From: Flavobacterium sp.
Lineage (GTDB): Bacteria; Bacteroidota; Bacteroidia; Flavobacteriales; Flavobacteriaceae
NCBI GenBank assembly: GCA_010365135.1
Contig: JAAFGY010000001.1
Coordinates: forward strand, 11,419-75,418
Length of the DNA: 64,000 bases
Direction: 5' to 3'
Below, one piece after another: positions 48,899-55,351 of this stretch (positions are counted from its first letter, which is position 1; the number at the start of each line of letters is the position of its first letter). The position numbers were made by a program, and so were the translations under genes. The notes beneath the pieces were generated by a model. That model was not told the DNA's origin and ran no database searches. It saw only the letters and a program-made list of their open reading frames with translations.

Positions 48899-50239
48899 AT
48901 GGAAATAGTTATCAAGCTTTCTCAATTTTTATTGAGCTTATCATTACTGATTATATTGCACGAATTAGGACATTTTATTCCTTCGAAAATATTTAAAACT
49001 AGAGTAGAAAAATTCTATTTGTTTTTTGACATCAAATACTCTTTATTCAAAAAGAAAATTGGTGAAACCGAATACGGAATCGGTTGGTTGCCTCTAGGTG
49101 GTTACGTGAAAATATCCGGAATGATTGACGAAAGCATGGACAAAGATCAAATGGCTTTGCCTCCACAACCTTGGGAATTCCGTTCCAAACCAGCTTGGCA
49201 ACGTTTGATAATTATGTTGGGTGGAGTAATGGTAAACTTTATTTTGGCGTTTGTGATTTACATCGGAATGGCTTATGCTTATGGCGATATATACCTCAAT
49301 AATTCAGAATTGAAAGACGGAATTGCGGTTACCAGTTCTGTTGGAGAAGAATTAGGTTTTAAAACAGGGGATAAAATTATTGCTATTGATGGCGAAAAAA
49401 TAGTTCATTTTGATGAAATCCCAATGAAAGTCTTGTTTTCTAAATCAGCTTTGATTAATCGTAACGGAGTCGAACAGACCATCCATTTTCCAGTAGATTT
49501 GATTGATAAGGTTCTAAAGGGTGAAAAACGCGCTTTCATTGGAATAAGAGAACCCTTTATGGTAGGAAAATTGTCTGATTCATCAGCAAACAAATCACTT
49601 CAACCCAAAGATGTAATCAAATCCATCAACGGCTTGCCTGTAAAATATGCCGATCAGGTTATTGCATTTGCAAAAATGAATAAAAACAAAACTGTTGATG
49701 CTATTGTTTTAAGAGATGAAAAAGAAGTTCCTGTAAAAATTACTGTCAACACAGAAGGAAAATTAGGAATATACGCAGCTTCAGTAGGAGTTAAAAGCCT
49801 TGAAAAACTCGGTCTTTATAAATTCAGTACGCAAGAATATAGCTTTTTTGAAGCCATCCCAGTGGGAATCGAGAAAGGAAAAAACCAATTATTGGGTTAC
49901 GGCAAACAGTTGAAAGCGATTTTCAATCCAGACACAGGCGCTTATAAGGGTGTTGGTGGATTTAAGGCTATTTTTGATATTTTTCCAAGCACTTGGAGCT
50001 GGGAAGTATTCTGGAATATCACGGCTTTATTGTCGATAATGCTAGGTGTAATGAATTTATTGCCTATTCCAGCCCTTGATGGAGGTCACGTCATCTTTTT
50101 ATTATACGAAATGGTTAGTGGTAAAAAACCCAGCGACAAGTTCTTAGAGCACGCTCAAATGGTTGGTTTCTTTCTACTTATAACTTTGTTGCTGTTTGCC
50201 AATGGTAATGACATCTACAAGGCGATTGTAGGTAAATAG
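48899..50239 (+). CDS. rseP: RIP metalloprotease RseP
   Basis: HELGH, PLGGYVKI, PDZ domains, NLLPIPALDGG. Confidence 0.96.
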   Translation: MEIVIKLSQFLLSLSLLIILHELGHFIPSKIFKTRVEKFYLFFDIKYSLFKKKIGETEYGIGWLPLGGYVKISGMIDESMDKDQMALPPQPWEFRSKPAWQRLIIMLGGVMVNFILAFVIYIGMAYAYGDIYLNNSELKDGIAVTSSVGEELGFKTGDKIIAIDGEKIVHFDEIPMKVLFSKSALINRNGVEQTIHFPVDLIDKVLKGEKRAFIGIREPFMVGKLSDSSANKSLQPKDVIKSINGLPVKYADQVIAFAKMNKNKTVDAIVLRDEKEVPVKITVNTEGKLGIYAASVGVKSLEKLGLYKFSTQEYSFFEAIPVGIEKGKNQLLGYGKQLKAIFNPDTGAYKGVGGFKAIFDIFPSTWSWEVFWNITALLSIMLGVMNLLPIPALDGGHVIFLLYEMVSGKKPSDKFLEHAQMVGFFLLITLLLFANGNDIYKAIVGK

Positions 50240-50375: not shown

Positions 50376-50449
50376 TCCTTCTTAGCTCAGTTGGTTAGAG
50401 CATCTGACTGTTAATCAGAGGGTCCTTGGTTCGAGCCCAAGAGAGGGAG
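50376..50449 (+). tRNA. tRNA-Asn(GTT)
   Basis: Acceptor TCCTTCT/AGAGGGA; D arm GCTC/GAGC; anticodon arm TCTGA-CTGTTAA-TCAGA; T arm CTTGG-TTCGAGC-CCAAG; CCA not encoded. Confidence 0.95.
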
Positions 50450-50450
50450 C

Positions 50451-50564: not shown

Positions 50565-50636
50565 AGCCCCGTAGTTCAACGGATAGAATGGGAGTTTCCT
50601 AAACTTTTGATCCGAGTTCGATTCTCGGCGGGGCTA
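50565..50636 (+). tRNA. tRNA-Arg(CCT)
   Basis: Acceptor AGCCCCG/CGGGGCT; anticodon arm GGAGT-TTCCTAA-ACTTT (two G.U pairs); T arm CCGAG-TTCGATT-CTCGG. Confidence 0.9.
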
Positions 50637-50637
50637 C

Positions 50638-50755: not shown

Positions 50756-51871
50756 ATGAAAAAAGTCAACTTATTATTACTCGCTATTATTGTTTTGAGC
50801 TGTCAGGCACAGGTAAAACCTAACGATATTGCTATTCAAGACGAAGTAATCAAATATACTTTTGAAACCGTTGCAGATGGAATTCCTATACCTTGGGGAA
50901 TGGCTTTTTTGCCTGACAATTCGATGCTTGTCACTGAAAAAAGCGGTGTTTTATACCACATAAAAAATGGAGTTAAAACGGAAGTTAAAAATGTTCCTGC
51001 AGTTTATAATCGTGGACAAGGCGGTTTACTCGATATTGTTTTACATCCTGATTATGCCAAAAATGGTTGGATTTACATTAGCTATTCTTCCTCCGAAGGC
51101 GAAGGTCAAGGCGGCAACACTAAACTCATTCGAACAAAATTAGTGGACGGAGGTCTAACACAAATTGAATCCCTTTATAAATGCGAACCGAACACAACAA
51201 AAGGACAGCATTTTGGTTCCCGAATTGTTTTTGACAAGGAGGGTTATTTGTATTTTTCGGCAGGAGAACGAGGCAATCATTTTGTGAATCCACAAGACAT
51301 CACTCGCGATAACGGAAAAATTTACCGCCTCAATGATGATGGCAGTATTCCTAAAGACAATCCTTTTGTAGGACAAGCCAATGCTAAGGAAGCAATCTAT
51401 ACTTACGGAAATCGCAATCCGCAAGGATTAGTATTAAATCCCTATACAGGCGCAATATGGGAACACGAACACGGTCCGCAAGGTGGCGATGAAATCAATA
51501 TTGTCAAAAAAGGCGCTAATTATGGTTGGCCGGTGGTTACATACGGCATCGATTATGACAACACAATTATTAGCAAAGAACAACAAAAATCGGGTATAGA
51601 AGATCCTATTTACTATTGGCTTCCTTCTATCGCGCCAAGCGGAATGCTATTTGTTACAAGCGATAAATATCCAGATTGGAAAGGAAATTTACTCGTAGGT
51701 TCTTTGAAATTTCAATACTTGGAACTGGTAAAATTAGAAGGCAATAAAATCATTGGTAGACAAAAAATTGGCACAGGAATTGGTCGTATGCGTAATGTGG
51801 CTCAAGGTCCCGATGGTTACATCTATTTAGGGGTAGAAGGAAAAGGAATTCTAAAAATTATGCCGAATTAA
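50756..51871 (+). CDS. PQQ-dependent sugar dehydrogenase (glucose/sorbosone, YliI-like), lipoprotein
   Basis: Lipobox LSC; PWGMAFLP, GQGGLLDI, HFGSRIVF, YGNRNPQG, EHGPQGGDEIN, GANYGWP motifs. Confidence 0.9.
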   Translation: MKKVNLLLLAIIVLSCQAQVKPNDIAIQDEVIKYTFETVADGIPIPWGMAFLPDNSMLVTEKSGVLYHIKNGVKTEVKNVPAVYNRGQGGLLDIVLHPDYAKNGWIYISYSSSEGEGQGGNTKLIRTKLVDGGLTQIESLYKCEPNTTKGQHFGSRIVFDKEGYLYFSAGERGNHFVNPQDITRDNGKIYRLNDDGSIPKDNPFVGQANAKEAIYTYGNRNPQGLVLNPYTGAIWEHEHGPQGGDEINIVKKGANYGWPVVTYGIDYDNTIISKEQQKSGIEDPIYYWLPSIAPSGMLFVTSDKYPDWKGNLLVGSLKFQYLELVKLEGNKIIGRQKIGTGIGRMRNVAQGPDGYIYLGVEGKGILKIMPN

Positions 51872-51911
51872 ATTGCCGCAAAGTAGTGCTCAAGAAGTAT
51901 TCAATGGAATA

Positions 51912-51951
51912 ACCGCAAATGCGCAAATTATATTAATTGTGAATTTGCGGT
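51912..51951. repeat. 9-mer inverted array ACCGCAAAT...ATTTGCGGT
   Basis: Perfect 9-bp terminal inverted repeat; CGCAAAT at 51914 and 51923. Confidence 0.6.
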
Positions 51952-51973
51952 AAAAACTAAAAAGATTAAAGTA

Positions 51974-52429
51974 ATGATTACTAAACTATATCTTGGAATT
52001 GCTTTGATGGCTTCCGTTTATTTATATTATTCGGATGCAAGTAGTGCTTCAGAAATAAAGTACCTTTCTATTGCTGAAATCCAACAACAAACTCCTTTGC
52101 AAAAGAGTATAGCAAACGGAAAAGACGTCTATGCTGATTTTTGTGTCCAATGTCATCTGGCTAACGGCAAAGGGGACGGGCTGAATATTCCACCTCTCGA
52201 TGGTTCAGATTGGCTAAAAAAGAAAAGAAGCCAAATCATTCATGTAGTGAAATACGGTCAATCTAGTGAAATTATGGTCAATTCAAAAAAATTCAACAAT
52301 ATAATGCCTGCGCCCGTGGGGTTGAGTAATCAGGAAGTAGCTGATGTGCTGAATTATGTTATGAATTCATGGAGCAATAAAAATAAAAAAATAGTTACAG
52401 CTGACCAAGTCGCTTTGGTAAAACCTTAA
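51974..52429 (+). CDS. Monoheme cytochrome c
   Basis: Signal/TM segment; CVQCH heme motif; PPLDGS; distal Met in IMPAP. Confidence 0.9.
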   Translation: MITKLYLGIALMASVYLYYSDASSASEIKYLSIAEIQQQTPLQKSIANGKDVYADFCVQCHLANGKGDGLNIPPLDGSDWLKKKRSQIIHVVKYGQSSEIMVNSKKFNNIMPAPVGLSNQEVADVLNYVMNSWSNKNKKIVTADQVALVKP

Positions 52430-52444
52430 ACTAGTTTTTCCTTA

Positions 52445-54523
52445 CTAAAAAAGATAGCTCAAGTTGATGCCACCAAAATAATTTCTGGGATTTCCAGGAT
52501 AATAGTAACGAGGTTGTACATTTCCAAAACCTACAGCATTAGGTAAAATACTGGCCGCATAATGGGTGTTGCTAACATTATTGATTCCAGCGTTTAACTC
52601 CGTTTTTAGCCTTTTCAAAATGGTAAAAGCATAGCTTGTTTTAACATCTAAAAGGCTGTAGGCTTGAGTATATTTGGAGTTTTGATCATTCATTGGAATT
52701 TTACCCACTTTTCTAAAAGAAGTATATAGGCTAAAACCACTTTTAGTACTTGCATTAAGCCCAAAATTCGATTGTGATGCGGGAGCTCCCGTGAGTTCGT
52801 TGCCAGAATAATCCTTGCCTACATCTACAAAGTCTTTGAATTTAAAGTGATTCACAGTTCCTGAAATCGTAGCGCTAAGTTGCCATTGCTCCGTTTTTAC
52901 CAACTGATAATTTAACAAATATTCTAAACCAATATGGGAACTTTCACCCGCATTGATTCCTATATATTGATCGTTGGCAGTTCGGTTTGCCACTAATAAA
53001 TTTGTAATTTGACAGCTATATAGCGCTATTTCTGTGTATAATTTATGGTTTAACCAATTTCCTTTGAAACCCAATTCATAGTTCCAGCCTATTTCTGGTT
53101 TTAATTTGGTGTTGATTTGCCCTGTTGGAGTTAAAGTTTCTGCAACAGCTGGTGTCGAAAAACCTTTGCTTATGGAGGTGTAAAAGTTTTTAGCTTTAGC
53201 AATCTGATACGAAAGACCAGCCCTTGGCGACCATACAGACCCAAAAGAATAGGACTGCTTTGGGTTATTACTATTGGGTTCGAAAACATCTTGCAAAGTA
53301 TATTGTGTCGTGTTGAATGCCAAACCTGTTTCGAGATGCAACGCTTTGGTCAATGAGAAATCCATTTGCAAAAAATAATTGCTGTACTTTCTGTTTTGCT
53401 TCATTTTACTGAATTCAGCTCCAGCGATACTTCCTTGATTGGGTTGCGATAGATACCCATTTTTGAATAGCGAAACTCCATATTTTTCAGTAGCTAATTC
53501 CGTTCCTAAACTCCCCTCGAAAGGAATAGATAACAACGTACTTTTATAATTTAAAACCGAACGCAAGCCAATAGTACTTGTTTTTTCATCCAGAATATCA
53601 AAAGGTCTCGCCTCATACGCCTTTTTGTAATTGGAAAAAATACTGCTTACAAAATTCCATTTGTCTGATAGTTTATAACTGTAGCCAATTCCCACCAGCA
53701 ATTTATCATAGGATTCATATCCTTGTGATGCAGCCCAAGTAAATGCGGCCTTCTCCGGATGATTTTCATAATCGGTTTCATTGATAGAACTTGGGATAAA
53801 AGCTTTCAATCTGGTAAAAATTCCAATGAATGATAAGCTTCCGTTCTGCTTTATTTTTTGCTTTCCGTGGAAATTAAATGATTTTCGATCATAAGCGGAA
53901 TTTTGGCGAAAGCCGTCACTTTGTAAATGAGAATAACTCGTATATACATTAGAGTTGGTAGTGGCAAACGCTCCCGAAAGTGTTTGTTTTACAAACCCGA
54001 AACTACCATAAGTGGTGGTTGATTTCCCTTCTAATTGTTGAAAACTAGCTTCTGTTGCCAAGAGATGAATTACTCCGCCAAGACCCGAACCAAAACTGGT
54101 AGAATTTGGTCCTTTGATAATTTCAATACTGCCAATGGATTCTAAATCAACATCTTCAATACTAGATTCCCCCTCAGCGGATGTCAACGGAATATTTTCA
54201 AAGTAAGTTTTTAATCTCGTAGTCCCATATTGAGCACGAGCCCCTATTCCTCTTATCGTAATCCGGTTTGTATTCAAGGTGCCTTGCAGCATAAAAACAC
54301 CAGAGATTTTGTTCAAAACAGCCGTAAGAATGACACCATCTGTTGTATTAAGTTCCTTTCTGTCAATAACCGAAACGGAATAAGCTGCGTTTTGAAGGGA
54401 AGTTTTTATAGGGGAAGTCACTATCTTAATTTCAGAAAGGGAAATAGTATCTTTTTTAACTTGACTAGAAACAAGATATACTGCAAAGAAAATTAGAAAA
54501 AAAGAAATTATATTTTTATGCAA
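52445..54523 (-). CDS. TonB-dependent receptor (YncD/PqqU-like plug)
   Basis: Plug TIRGIGARAQYG...IEIIKGPNSTSFGSGLGGVI; barrel; C-terminal YLF. Confidence 0.88.
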   Translation of the reverse strand: MHKNIISFFLIFFAVYLVSSQVKKDTISLSEIKIVTSPIKTSLQNAAYSVSVIDRKELNTTDGVILTAVLNKISGVFMLQGTLNTNRITIRGIGARAQYGTTRLKTYFENIPLTSAEGESSIEDVDLESIGSIEIIKGPNSTSFGSGLGGVIHLLATEASFQQLEGKSTTTYGSFGFVKQTLSGAFATTNSNVYTSYSHLQSDGFRQNSAYDRKSFNFHGKQKIKQNGSLSFIGIFTRLKAFIPSSINETDYENHPEKAAFTWAASQGYESYDKLLVGIGYSYKLSDKWNFVSSIFSNYKKAYEARPFDILDEKTSTIGLRSVLNYKSTLLSIPFEGSLGTELATEKYGVSLFKNGYLSQPNQGSIAGAEFSKMKQNRKYSNYFLQMDFSLTKALHLETGLAFNTTQYTLQDVFEPNSNNPKQSYSFGSVWSPRAGLSYQIAKAKNFYTSISKGFSTPAVAETLTPTGQINTKLKPEIGWNYELGFKGNWLNHKLYTEIALYSCQITNLLVANRTANDQYIGINAGESSHIGLEYLLNYQLVKTEQWQLSATISGTVNHFKFKDFVDVGKDYSGNELTGAPASQSNFGLNASTKSGFSLYTSFRKVGKIPMNDQNSKYTQAYSLLDVKTSYAFTILKRLKTELNAGINNVSNTHYAASILPNAVGFGNVQPRYYYPGNPRNYFGGINLSYLF

Positions 54524-54667: not shown

Positions 54668-54688
54668 TTCGATTCTCGGCGGGGCTAC
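54668..54688 (+). repeat. Duplicated tRNA-Arg 3' end (att-like)
   Basis: Identical to 50617-50637. Confidence 0.85.
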
Positions 54689-54821
54689 TTGAAAGACTTT
54701 TCAGTGATATAAGGTTTTTTTTCGTATAACGATGAACCTTCCGATTTCTTCAAAGTTATTTTTGATTATATTTGGTTTTAATAAATCCACCAAATTAAAA
54801 ACATTCAAAAAACGCCCCACA

Positions 54822-55351
54822 ATGGAAAATAAAAAACGCTTGTCTGCAGAACTACGTTCGTCAATTCTCATTATATTGAAAGAGCGTTTTGAAAAAAACA
54901 CAAATCGCCACGCCAATCTTGAATGGGATTTGGTGCGAACGAAACTGGAAGCTAACCCTGAGAAACTATGGTCGCTCCACGAAATGGAAAGAACAGGCGG
55001 CGAACCAGATGTTGTACTCCCAATTCGGCCGAAAGTCCTAAAGGCCGCAGAAGCATTTGTTACGACCAAGAAGCATTGGATTCCAGAAAAGAACATAAGC
55101 CCGCAACGAGTGCTATTGAAATGGCATTAGAAATGGGCATTGAACTTTTATCAGAAGAAAACTACCGAGAATTACAACAACTTGGCAATTTCGACTCCAA
55201 AACATCGAGTTGGATAAAAACGCCTCCCGAGATTAGAAAACTTGGTGGTGCTCTTTTTGCCGATTTTCGTTATAACACCGTCTTTGTCTATCATAATGGC
55301 GCAGAATCTTATTATGCTGCAAGAGGGTTTCGAGGATTGTTAAGGGTTTAA
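54822..55351 (+). pseudogene. DUF4256-family protein disrupted by a frameshift, probably with a short deletion
   Basis: MENKK...EMERTGGEPDVV in one frame; SAESPKGRRSICYD...YYAARGFRGLLRV in another; junction near 55010-55030. Confidence 0.78.

Follow-up and report, generated by a model that had tools for sequence, protein, structure and literature searches.

The window analysed here is a 64,000-nucleotide stretch (C12:11419-75418) of a 3.64-Mb assembly that is 93% complete and whose nearest homologues are found in Flavobacterium. It carries a cassette of three genes coding for a dehydrogenase dependent on pyrroloquinoline quinone (PQQ), a cytochrome c and a TonB-dependent transporter (TBDT), referred to below as P0001, P0002 and P0003. 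The nearest characterised relative of P0003 is, by a wide margin, the PQQ importer PqqU (YncD) of Escherichia coli. Sequence comparison places P0003 in a distinct sister family, whose genes in Flavobacteriaceae mostly lie next to those of six-bladed dehydrogenases of the glucose/sorbosone dehydrogenase (GSDH) type.

The initial annotation described the locus as an islet filled by exactly three genes. This is true, with the open reading frame (ORF) coordinates as claimed, of the interval between two copies of the last 21 nt of a tRNA-Arg(CCT) gene (Table 1): the repeat pair encloses the genes of P0001, P0002 and P0003 only. The left copy belongs to the complete tRNA gene, whereas the right copy, TTCGATTCTCGGCGGGGCTAC, is a fragment of its 3' end and is followed by a terminator-like hairpin. 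The P0002 and P0003 genes are convergent, with 15 nt between their stop codons.

Table 1. Features of the cassette and its flanks (positions in the window)
Feature	Position	Strand	Basis or remark
M50 protease (RseP-like) gene	48899-50239		upstream flank
tRNA-Asn(GTT)	50376..50450	+	ARAGORN; adjoins the RseP-like gene
tRNA-Arg(CCT), complete gene	50565..50637	+	ARAGORN; last 21 nt (50617-50637) are the left repeat copy
P0001, PQQ dehydrogenase, 371 aa	50756-51871	+	Pfam and PDB matches
P0002, monoheme class I cytochrome c, 151 aa	51974-52429	+	Pfam matches
P0003, class 2 PqqU-like TBDT, 692 aa	52445-54523	-	Pfam plug and barrel
21-nt repeat, right copy	54668-54688	+	sequence; tRNA-Arg 3' end fragment
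DUF4256 gene, two overlapping frames	54732-55130 and 54968-55351		between the tRNA-Arg fragment and orf343
orf343, 343 aa	55540-56571		without Pfam match; conserved beside the TBDT start

P0001 matches the GSDH family (PF07995) at 429 bits and E. coli YliI/Asd (PDB 2g8s) over its full length (E 7e-85). Its catalytic and PQQ/Ca motifs HFGSR (HFGxR), RNPQG, EHGPQGGDE and NYGWP align with those of 2g8s. By these matches P0001 is a YliI/Asd-type, six-bladed, PQQ-dependent aldose (glucose/sorbosone) dehydrogenase for which PQQ binding is predicted. Its metal motif EHGPQGGDE is of the YliI/Ca type, as in E. coli YliI, and the lanthanide-type motifs NERD...D and NGRD...D were not found in it. Compared with YliI, P0001 adds a signal peptide with a lipobox-like motif, and it has a cytochrome c neighbour of its own. 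The N-terminus, MKKVNLLLLAIIVLSC, carries the lipobox-like VLSC, and the enzyme is probably lipid-anchored. An electron acceptor is not known for E. coli YliI. P0002 carries the haem motif CVQCH at residues 57-61, a candidate Met ligand in NIMPAP and an N-terminal hydrophobic anchor or signal (PF00034 at 52 bits, PF13442 at 36 bits). In 49 of 80 related loci a cytochrome c gene comes after that of the dehydrogenase, and the adjacency suggests that electrons would pass from P0001 to P0002.

The absence of pqq biosynthesis genes, first remarked on for the window, extends to the whole assembly as far as the PF03070 and PqqE searches cover it. The PqqC/TenA-fold profile PF03070, positive in 6 control genomes, has no match in the genome, and PqqE searches gave only generic radical-SAM matches of at most 76 bits (cut-off 381). 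TIGR02111 (PqqC) also gave no match, but it gave none in 14 control genomes either. The absence of these genes is strong but, the genome being 93% complete, not absolute. Metagenome-assembled genomes labelled Klebsiella pneumoniae, Variovorax paradoxus and Porticoccaceae were dropped as PqqC controls because they are apparently mislabelled. Three such assemblies of 2.1-3.0 Mb, without pqqC, carry Flavobacterium-type cassettes at 60-67% identity (L048, labelled Porticoccaceae bacterium; L060, Klebsiella pneumoniae; L090, Variovorax paradoxus), and their taxonomic labels look wrong.

No eight-bladed quinoprotein dehydrogenase was found in the 93%-complete genome. Its sole PF13360 match (contig C29, L123:589-2427) was rejected as such an enzyme, being a Metallophos-propeller fusion: the 612-aa product joins a calcineurin-like phosphoesterase domain to a PQQ_2/BamB-like beta-propeller. 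One further GSDH-family gene is present (contig C6:6907-8280, 457 aa). Its product, which ends in a C-terminal sorting domain of the type IX secretion system (T9SS), is predicted to be a six-bladed propeller at the cell surface or secreted, and has a metal motif of neither the YliI-like nor the NERD...D kind. P0001 and this paralogue are the only candidate PQQ clients of the genome, and P0001 is the main, perhaps the only, periplasmic one.

Relation of the transporter to PqqU

P0003 has a TTG start, a signal peptide and a TonB-box-like segment, SEIKIVTS, that aligns with the TMIVSA segment of E. coli. Pfam recognises a plug (PF07715) and a TonB_dep_Rec barrel (PF00593), and barrel strands are seen in the secondary structure of the AF2 model (pLDDT 77, pTM 0.80). 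The top NCBIfam match is TonB_rec_PqqU (NF041535), end to end over positions 15-675 of 676. Among PDB sequences PqqU (9c4o/6v81) is retrieved with an E-value of 3.5e-37 and the next match with 2e-6; a profile search with 141 family representatives gives PqqU 309 bits and FecA, which comes next, 97. Foldseek superposes the model on PQQ-bound PqqU (9c4o) with TM-scores of 0.86/0.90, a root mean square deviation of 2.7 Å and an E-value of 2e-47, while siderophore receptors reach 0.77-0.80, FoxA being next after 9c4o at 0.77. No grouping with siderophore or B12 transporters was found, PqqU being first in NCBIfam, in PDB sequence and in fold. The likeness of the plug to that of E. coli YncD/PqqU, which the initial annotation had pointed out, is real: the plug segment aligns with SIRGFGSRSTYG...GIPATMPDGQGQTSNIDL of PqqU, including the PQQ-stacking Tyr99. 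E. coli PqqU (6V81/9C4O) is likewise a 22-strand TBDT of the same size with a plug aromatic at position 99. Its host, too, has no PQQ synthesis, possesses periplasmic PQQ enzymes and needs no inner-membrane transporter for the cofactor.

In spite of this, P0003 is not an orthologue of PqqU. It is only ~24% identical to the E. coli protein, scores 180 bits against the PqqU equivalog NF041535 (cut-off 1200), and has lysine (K300) and valine (V350) at two of the three positions that define PqqU. The earlier designation as a PqqU-like receptor is apt in so far as PqqU is the nearest relative, but P0003 belongs to a distinct sister family.

The extent of this family was examined by searching 301 Flavobacteriaceae genomes, one per genus, with E. 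coli PqqU, four candidates per genome being scored. Class 1, present in 27 genomes, many of them small and marine, is 27-35% identical to E. coli PqqU and scores 180-317 bits. Class 2, present in ~148 genomes of varied size, roughly half of the Flavobacteriaceae genera, is 22-28% identical and scores 100-165 bits. P0003 scores 128 bits in this search and therefore belongs to class 2. In a tree, class 2 forms a clade apart from class 1 and E. coli PqqU. Class 2 matches occur in none of the 27 class 1 genomes, as against 148 of the 274 others (Fisher 5e-9), an exclusivity as expected for isofunctional alternatives. The two classes share a bacterial family, the K274E state and a presumed role. 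However, class 1 keeps Q84, F99, Q121, E274, R304 and R365 in 24/24 sequences and is rarely adjacent to a GSDH-family gene. Beyond this family, P0003 as query retrieves 976 of 1.84 billion representatives (50% identity) at E <= 1e-30, a count of ~1000 that includes true PqqU-level relatives; its top 150 matches are 33-55% identical, many of them with an N-terminal extension of ~70 aa.

Class 1 is presumably the set counted in the published PqqU census (Munder et al. 2025, PMC12124388). The listed rows of the census supplement, which comprise at least 142 Flavobacteriaceae, include marine genera such as MS024-2A, Muricauda and Arcticimaribacter. Flavobacterium, Mesonia, Aquaticitalea and Paucihalobacter are not among these rows, which is suggestive only.

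In that study PqqU is defined by Y/F/W99, R304 and R365, with K274 often replaced by E and R536 semi-conserved. E. coli numbering was rebuilt from the printed alignment and verified against all mutated residues named there. Equivalent positions in P0003 were taken from three alignments, all concordant (MAFFT with 151 relatives, the profile against 9c4o, and MAFFT with class 1 bridging sequences), together with strand parity from predicted secondary structure. Residues were counted in 141 sequences of the wider family and, for position 300, in a close family of 28 (Table 2). P0003 positions 300, 302, 304 and 306 lie on one face at the extracellular end of strand 289-305 in the AF2 secondary structure, a register that agrees with the lumen-facing R304, Q308 and Q310 of E. 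coli PqqU. A pairwise phmmer alignment instead puts K354, which is not conserved, opposite R365; class 2 often has E354. The aromatic residue of the signature is present in P0003 and, with the K274E state, is kept as in signature-positive PqqU homologues.

Table 2. Pocket residues of E. coli PqqU and their equivalents
E. coli PqqU	P0003	Class 2
Q84	N84	N in 112/141
Y99	Y99	F or Y in 141/141
Q121		S/T
K274	E270	E, invariant
R304	K300	K in 26/28 of the close family; wider family R 59, K 24, other 58 of 141
Q308	E304	E, invariant
Q310	R306	invariant in the close family; R in 132/141
R365	V350	W in 89/141 of the wider family; F or Y in the close family
R536	Q519	Q most common

Linkage to six-bladed dehydrogenase genes

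Close relatives of the transporter were collected, with a family pattern built on 25 sequences, from 80 species loci, nearly all of them in Flavobacterium. The TBDT, cytochrome c and GSDH genes are adjacent in 49 loci; 3 have the GSDH gene only, 2 are cut by contig ends and 26 have the TBDT alone. Counting the two truncated loci, the class 2 TBDT adjoins a GSDH-family gene in 54/80, and at least 2 of the genomes with a lone TBDT have the GSDH orthologue elsewhere. The linkage extends beyond the genus. In 12 of 14 other Flavobacteriaceae genera a GSDH-family gene adjoins the class 2 TBDT, in varying order and strand: the neighbour is of the YliI type, with or without cytochrome c, in 7, of the NERD type in 3 and a more distant GSDH-like protein in 2, while 2 have none. 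Class 1 genes have such a neighbour in only 1/26 cases (Fisher 2e-7 against class 2 in the 14 genera). In this lone case (L176), PqqU stands beside a P0001 orthologue of 53% identity, the roles being swapped in that genus: a class 1 PqqU accompanies this type of dehydrogenase.

Co-occurrence follows the same pattern. Within the genus, all 11 TBDT-positive genomes have the GSDH gene (at least 37% identity) and none of the 22 GSDH-less genomes has the TBDT. Within the family, the GSDH gene is found in 171/175 TBDT-positive genomes against 93/126 TBDT-negative ones, an odds ratio of 15.

Could this adjacency be incidental, the TBDT serving as a receptor for siderophores, haem or some other nutrient? 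Source databases do name P0003 homologues 'iron complex outermembrane receptor protein', and the siderophore receptor model TIGR01783 is the second-best NCBIfam match (146 bits). Nevertheless, such a role is very improbable in view of the profile and fold margins, which favour PqqU, and of a linkage that persists across genera and loci despite rearranged gene order. Moreover, in the few class 2 loci annotated here no periplasmic binding protein, ABC or Fur-type genes accompany the transporter, whereas L027, a true outgroup TBDT, adjoins a Peripla_BP_2 gene.

The neighbouring enzyme is not always of one kind. In a 41%-identical class 2 clade from large-genome Flavobacterium, the TBDT adjoins another GSDH-family lipoprotein of 427 aa with the motif VNERDELGDD (L021). 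The NERD...D type is predicted to be lanthanide-dependent (Voutsinos et al. 2026, preprint, 10.64898/2026.07.10.737718). YliI-like (EHGPxGGDE) and NERD...D neighbours are interspersed in the class 2 tree, and since the neighbour switches between a Ca type and a predicted lanthanide type, the common need would be PQQ and not one metal or one substrate. In the same clade, a conserved 183-aa protein without Pfam family is encoded directly after the L021 TBDT (L021:10241-10792), with equivalent ~183-aa ORFs in L022-L026.

Synteny by itself fits import of a substrate as well as import of a cofactor. Bacteroidota commonly pair TBDTs with enzymes for the imported compound, and the authors of the Voutsinos preprint speculate that PQQ six-bladed enzymes oxidise oligosaccharides that have been imported. 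P0003 might accordingly take up a sugar, an oligosaccharide or an aldose-like compound for P0001, the cassette being a minimal catabolic unit of uptake and oxidation. This is unlikely: one TBDT family is linked to two interspersed dehydrogenase types, the nearest family is that of a cofactor importer whose stacking aromatic is kept, and exclusivity with true PqqU would be left unexplained. Furthermore, the cassette contains no SusD-like ORF and no CAZyme or regulator genes, and P0003 reaches only 39 bits against the SusC/RagA model TIGR04056 (cut-off 368).

Ligand of the transporter

Import of PQQ through the outer membrane, possibly as a metal chelate, for a periplasmic line from dehydrogenase to cytochrome c is the explanation favoured here, and it is held with moderate confidence. 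PQQ from outside the cell, either free or chelated with Ca/Ln, would cross the outer membrane through the TBDT and, the client enzyme being periplasmic, would not have to cross the inner one. PQQ would load P0001, itself probably lipid-anchored, which would oxidise sugars at C1 and pass electrons to the adjacent monoheme cytochrome c and from there, presumably, to a terminal oxidase.

Several observations point to PQQ. It is the substrate of the nearest characterised relative, P0003 has kept both the stacking aromatic and the K274E state, and the host cannot, as far as its gene content indicates, synthesise the cofactor. The linked PQQ enzymes are of two metal types, and class 2 is exclusive with true PqqU. 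Pseudomonas aeruginosa provides a precedent for the adjacency of importer and client. A periplasmic destination also fits, because no binding-protein or ABC genes occur in the loci annotated here. The argument rests on synteny, co-occurrence and exclusivity with true PqqU, and not on orthology. The proposal of the initial annotation that the cell imports PQQ made elsewhere is partly supported, by the anatomy of the cassette, by the lack of synthesis genes and by the proximity to PqqU, but it loses the support of orthology, two signature residues being missing.

Other observations weigh against this interpretation. The two missing residues (R304 replaced by K300, R365 by V350) correspond to charge-swap-sensitive positions of E. 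coli PqqU (Munder et al. 2025), R536 is also replaced, by Q, and the NF041535 score lies far below the equivalog cut-off. The co-occurrence and exclusivity statistics ignore kinship, and exclusivity depends on four scored candidates per genome. The absence of pqq genes is not absolute, because the genome is only 93% complete. Finally, lanthanide TBDTs (Ln-TBDTs) have been reported to have PqqU as best PDB match and yet to be without the PQQ residues (10.64898/2026.07.10.737718).

This last point bears on another explanation, in which the TBDT, in the manner of LutH, imports a metal for the dehydrogenase, a lanthanide or other cation, free or chelated. Ln-TBDTs are reported to be misannotated as YncD/PqqU, the class 2 pocket is acidic (invariant E270 and E304, often E354), and one class 2 subclade adjoins the predicted lanthanide-dependent NERD...D enzymes. 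However, the present genome has no predicted lanthanide enzyme, P0001 being of the Ca type, the paralogue not of the NERD type and eight-bladed quinoproteins absent. Position 99 is always occupied by an aromatic residue (F or Y), the type of the neighbouring enzyme switches repeatedly in the class 2 tree, and exclusivity with true PqqU is not expected of a metal importer. Moreover, the cassette has neither the ~120-aa periplasmic partner nor the pqq operon that have been reported beside Ln-TBDTs, and the reported hosts did not include Bacteroidota. Metal import is accordingly judged distinctly unlikely.

PQQ import does leave room for a metal. Munder et al. (2025) proposed that the K274E variant may co-bind metal with PQQ. 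In class 2 the same pocket also contains another invariant glutamate, E304, and an invariant arginine, R306, which makes a PQQ-metal chelate an attractive candidate ligand. Class 2 could then be a second family of PQQ importers that binds the chelate and delivers a ready-made cofactor to neighbouring six-bladed quinoproteins, a tentative and still doubtful proposal. If true, delivery of PQQ-metal by class 2 would explain the cofactor supply of 'PqqU-less' Bacteroidota with PQQ enzymes.

Genomic setting and comparison with known systems

The cassette is not a strain-specific islet, an idea rejected because the same genes stand beside orf343 in dozens of Flavobacterium species. Upstream, the pairing of the RseP gene with tRNA-Asn is kept throughout the genus, and cassette-less relatives retain it with other cargo downstream. 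In the window, L050 and L060 the complete tRNA-Arg(CCT) is found next to RseP; in L105, L048 and L056 it is on the TBDT side, as in L065 (4278-4350), where it occupies the position of the right repeat copy. Copies of its 3' end flank the cassette on both sides in the window and, in the same layout, in F. franklandianum (L112, 5863-5883 and 9534-9554). No integrase is present at the cassette. In the flanking RseP gene the window shares 90% identity with L065. By contrast, the cytochrome c and the TBDT have higher identity to the L041/L046/L082 group (66-70% and 65-67%; 68% and 67% against the L041 group) than to L065 (51% and 61%). These discordant similarities suggest allelic replacement of the cassette, and the arrangement as a whole suggests exchange at a tRNA-bounded site, the interval after tRNA-Asn behaving as a variable hotspot.

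Downstream, the right tRNA-Arg fragment is followed by the DUF4256 gene, which is either a frameshifted pseudogene or split by an assembly error, and then by orf343. Relatives have no DUF4256 gene at the corresponding place, and ~320 bp separate their orf343 from the start of the TBDT gene. In most cassette-bearing Flavobacterium loci an orf343 product 55-80% identical is encoded beside the TBDT start; it may be a simple chromosomal flank or may have a functional link to the cassette.

The gene of P0003 adjoins its presumed client, whereas E. coli shows no linkage of pqqU with gcd or yliI, and the pocket of P0003 differs from that of the E. coli protein at eight positions (Q84N, Q121S/T, K274E, R304K, Q308E, Q310R, R365V, which is W/F in the family, and R536Q). 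A closer parallel in gene order is found in P. aeruginosa, in which PA2289 (PqqU) presumably lies directly beside PA2290 (gcd), so that, as in the cassette, the gene of a PQQ importer adjoins that of a PQQ sugar dehydrogenase. The P. aeruginosa pair differs in having as client the eight-bladed membrane Gcd, in a host that makes PQQ and in the lack of a cytochrome c gene. Its adjacency follows from the locus-tag numbers (preprint 10.64898/2026.04.27.721047).

Pairs of a PQQ six-bladed dehydrogenase and a monoheme cytochrome c551 have been published for Bacteroidetes (Voutsinos et al. 2026). There, as in the cassette, the cytochrome gene comes directly after the dehydrogenase gene, and the pair has been modelled as a complex with PQQ and haem ~12 Å apart. 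These pairs involve NERD...D enzymes of Sphingobacteriales, Chitinophagales and Cytophagales, and no linked PqqU-like TBDT was reported, whereas in the cassette the TBDT belongs to the unit and P0001 has the YliI-like EHGPQGGDE.

PQQ scavenging via PqqU is established, and Bacteroidota without pqq genes are regarded as pure scavengers (Munder et al. 2025). The census in that study used the three-residue signature and covered eight-bladed quinoproteins only (PF01011, PF13360, PF13570). It would have discarded class 2 at the R304/R365 filter, and clients of the GSDH type lie outside its search. A described module of TBDT, GSDH and cytochrome c was not found in the literature search, nor was a sister family of PqqU that has an E/E/R pocket, is linked near-obligately to six-bladed quinoproteins and is exclusive with signature-positive PqqU. 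Thus the idea of scavenging is already published, and the class 2 importer family probably is not.

Two gaps in the current picture are therefore apparent. The TBDT family genomically tied to PQQ enzymes in Flavobacteriaceae is a sister family with a different pocket, and its clients are six-bladed GSDH-type enzymes, which went uncounted in the census. Should PQQ prove to be what class 2 transports, there are more PQQ-scavenging bacteria than now estimated, R304/R365 cannot serve as a general rule, and the proposed co-transport of PQQ and metal can be tested directly on the acidic pocket. If it transports something else, it marks a further requirement of six-bladed quinoproteins. Either way, the cassette represents a compact three-gene system that is testable in Flavobacterium.

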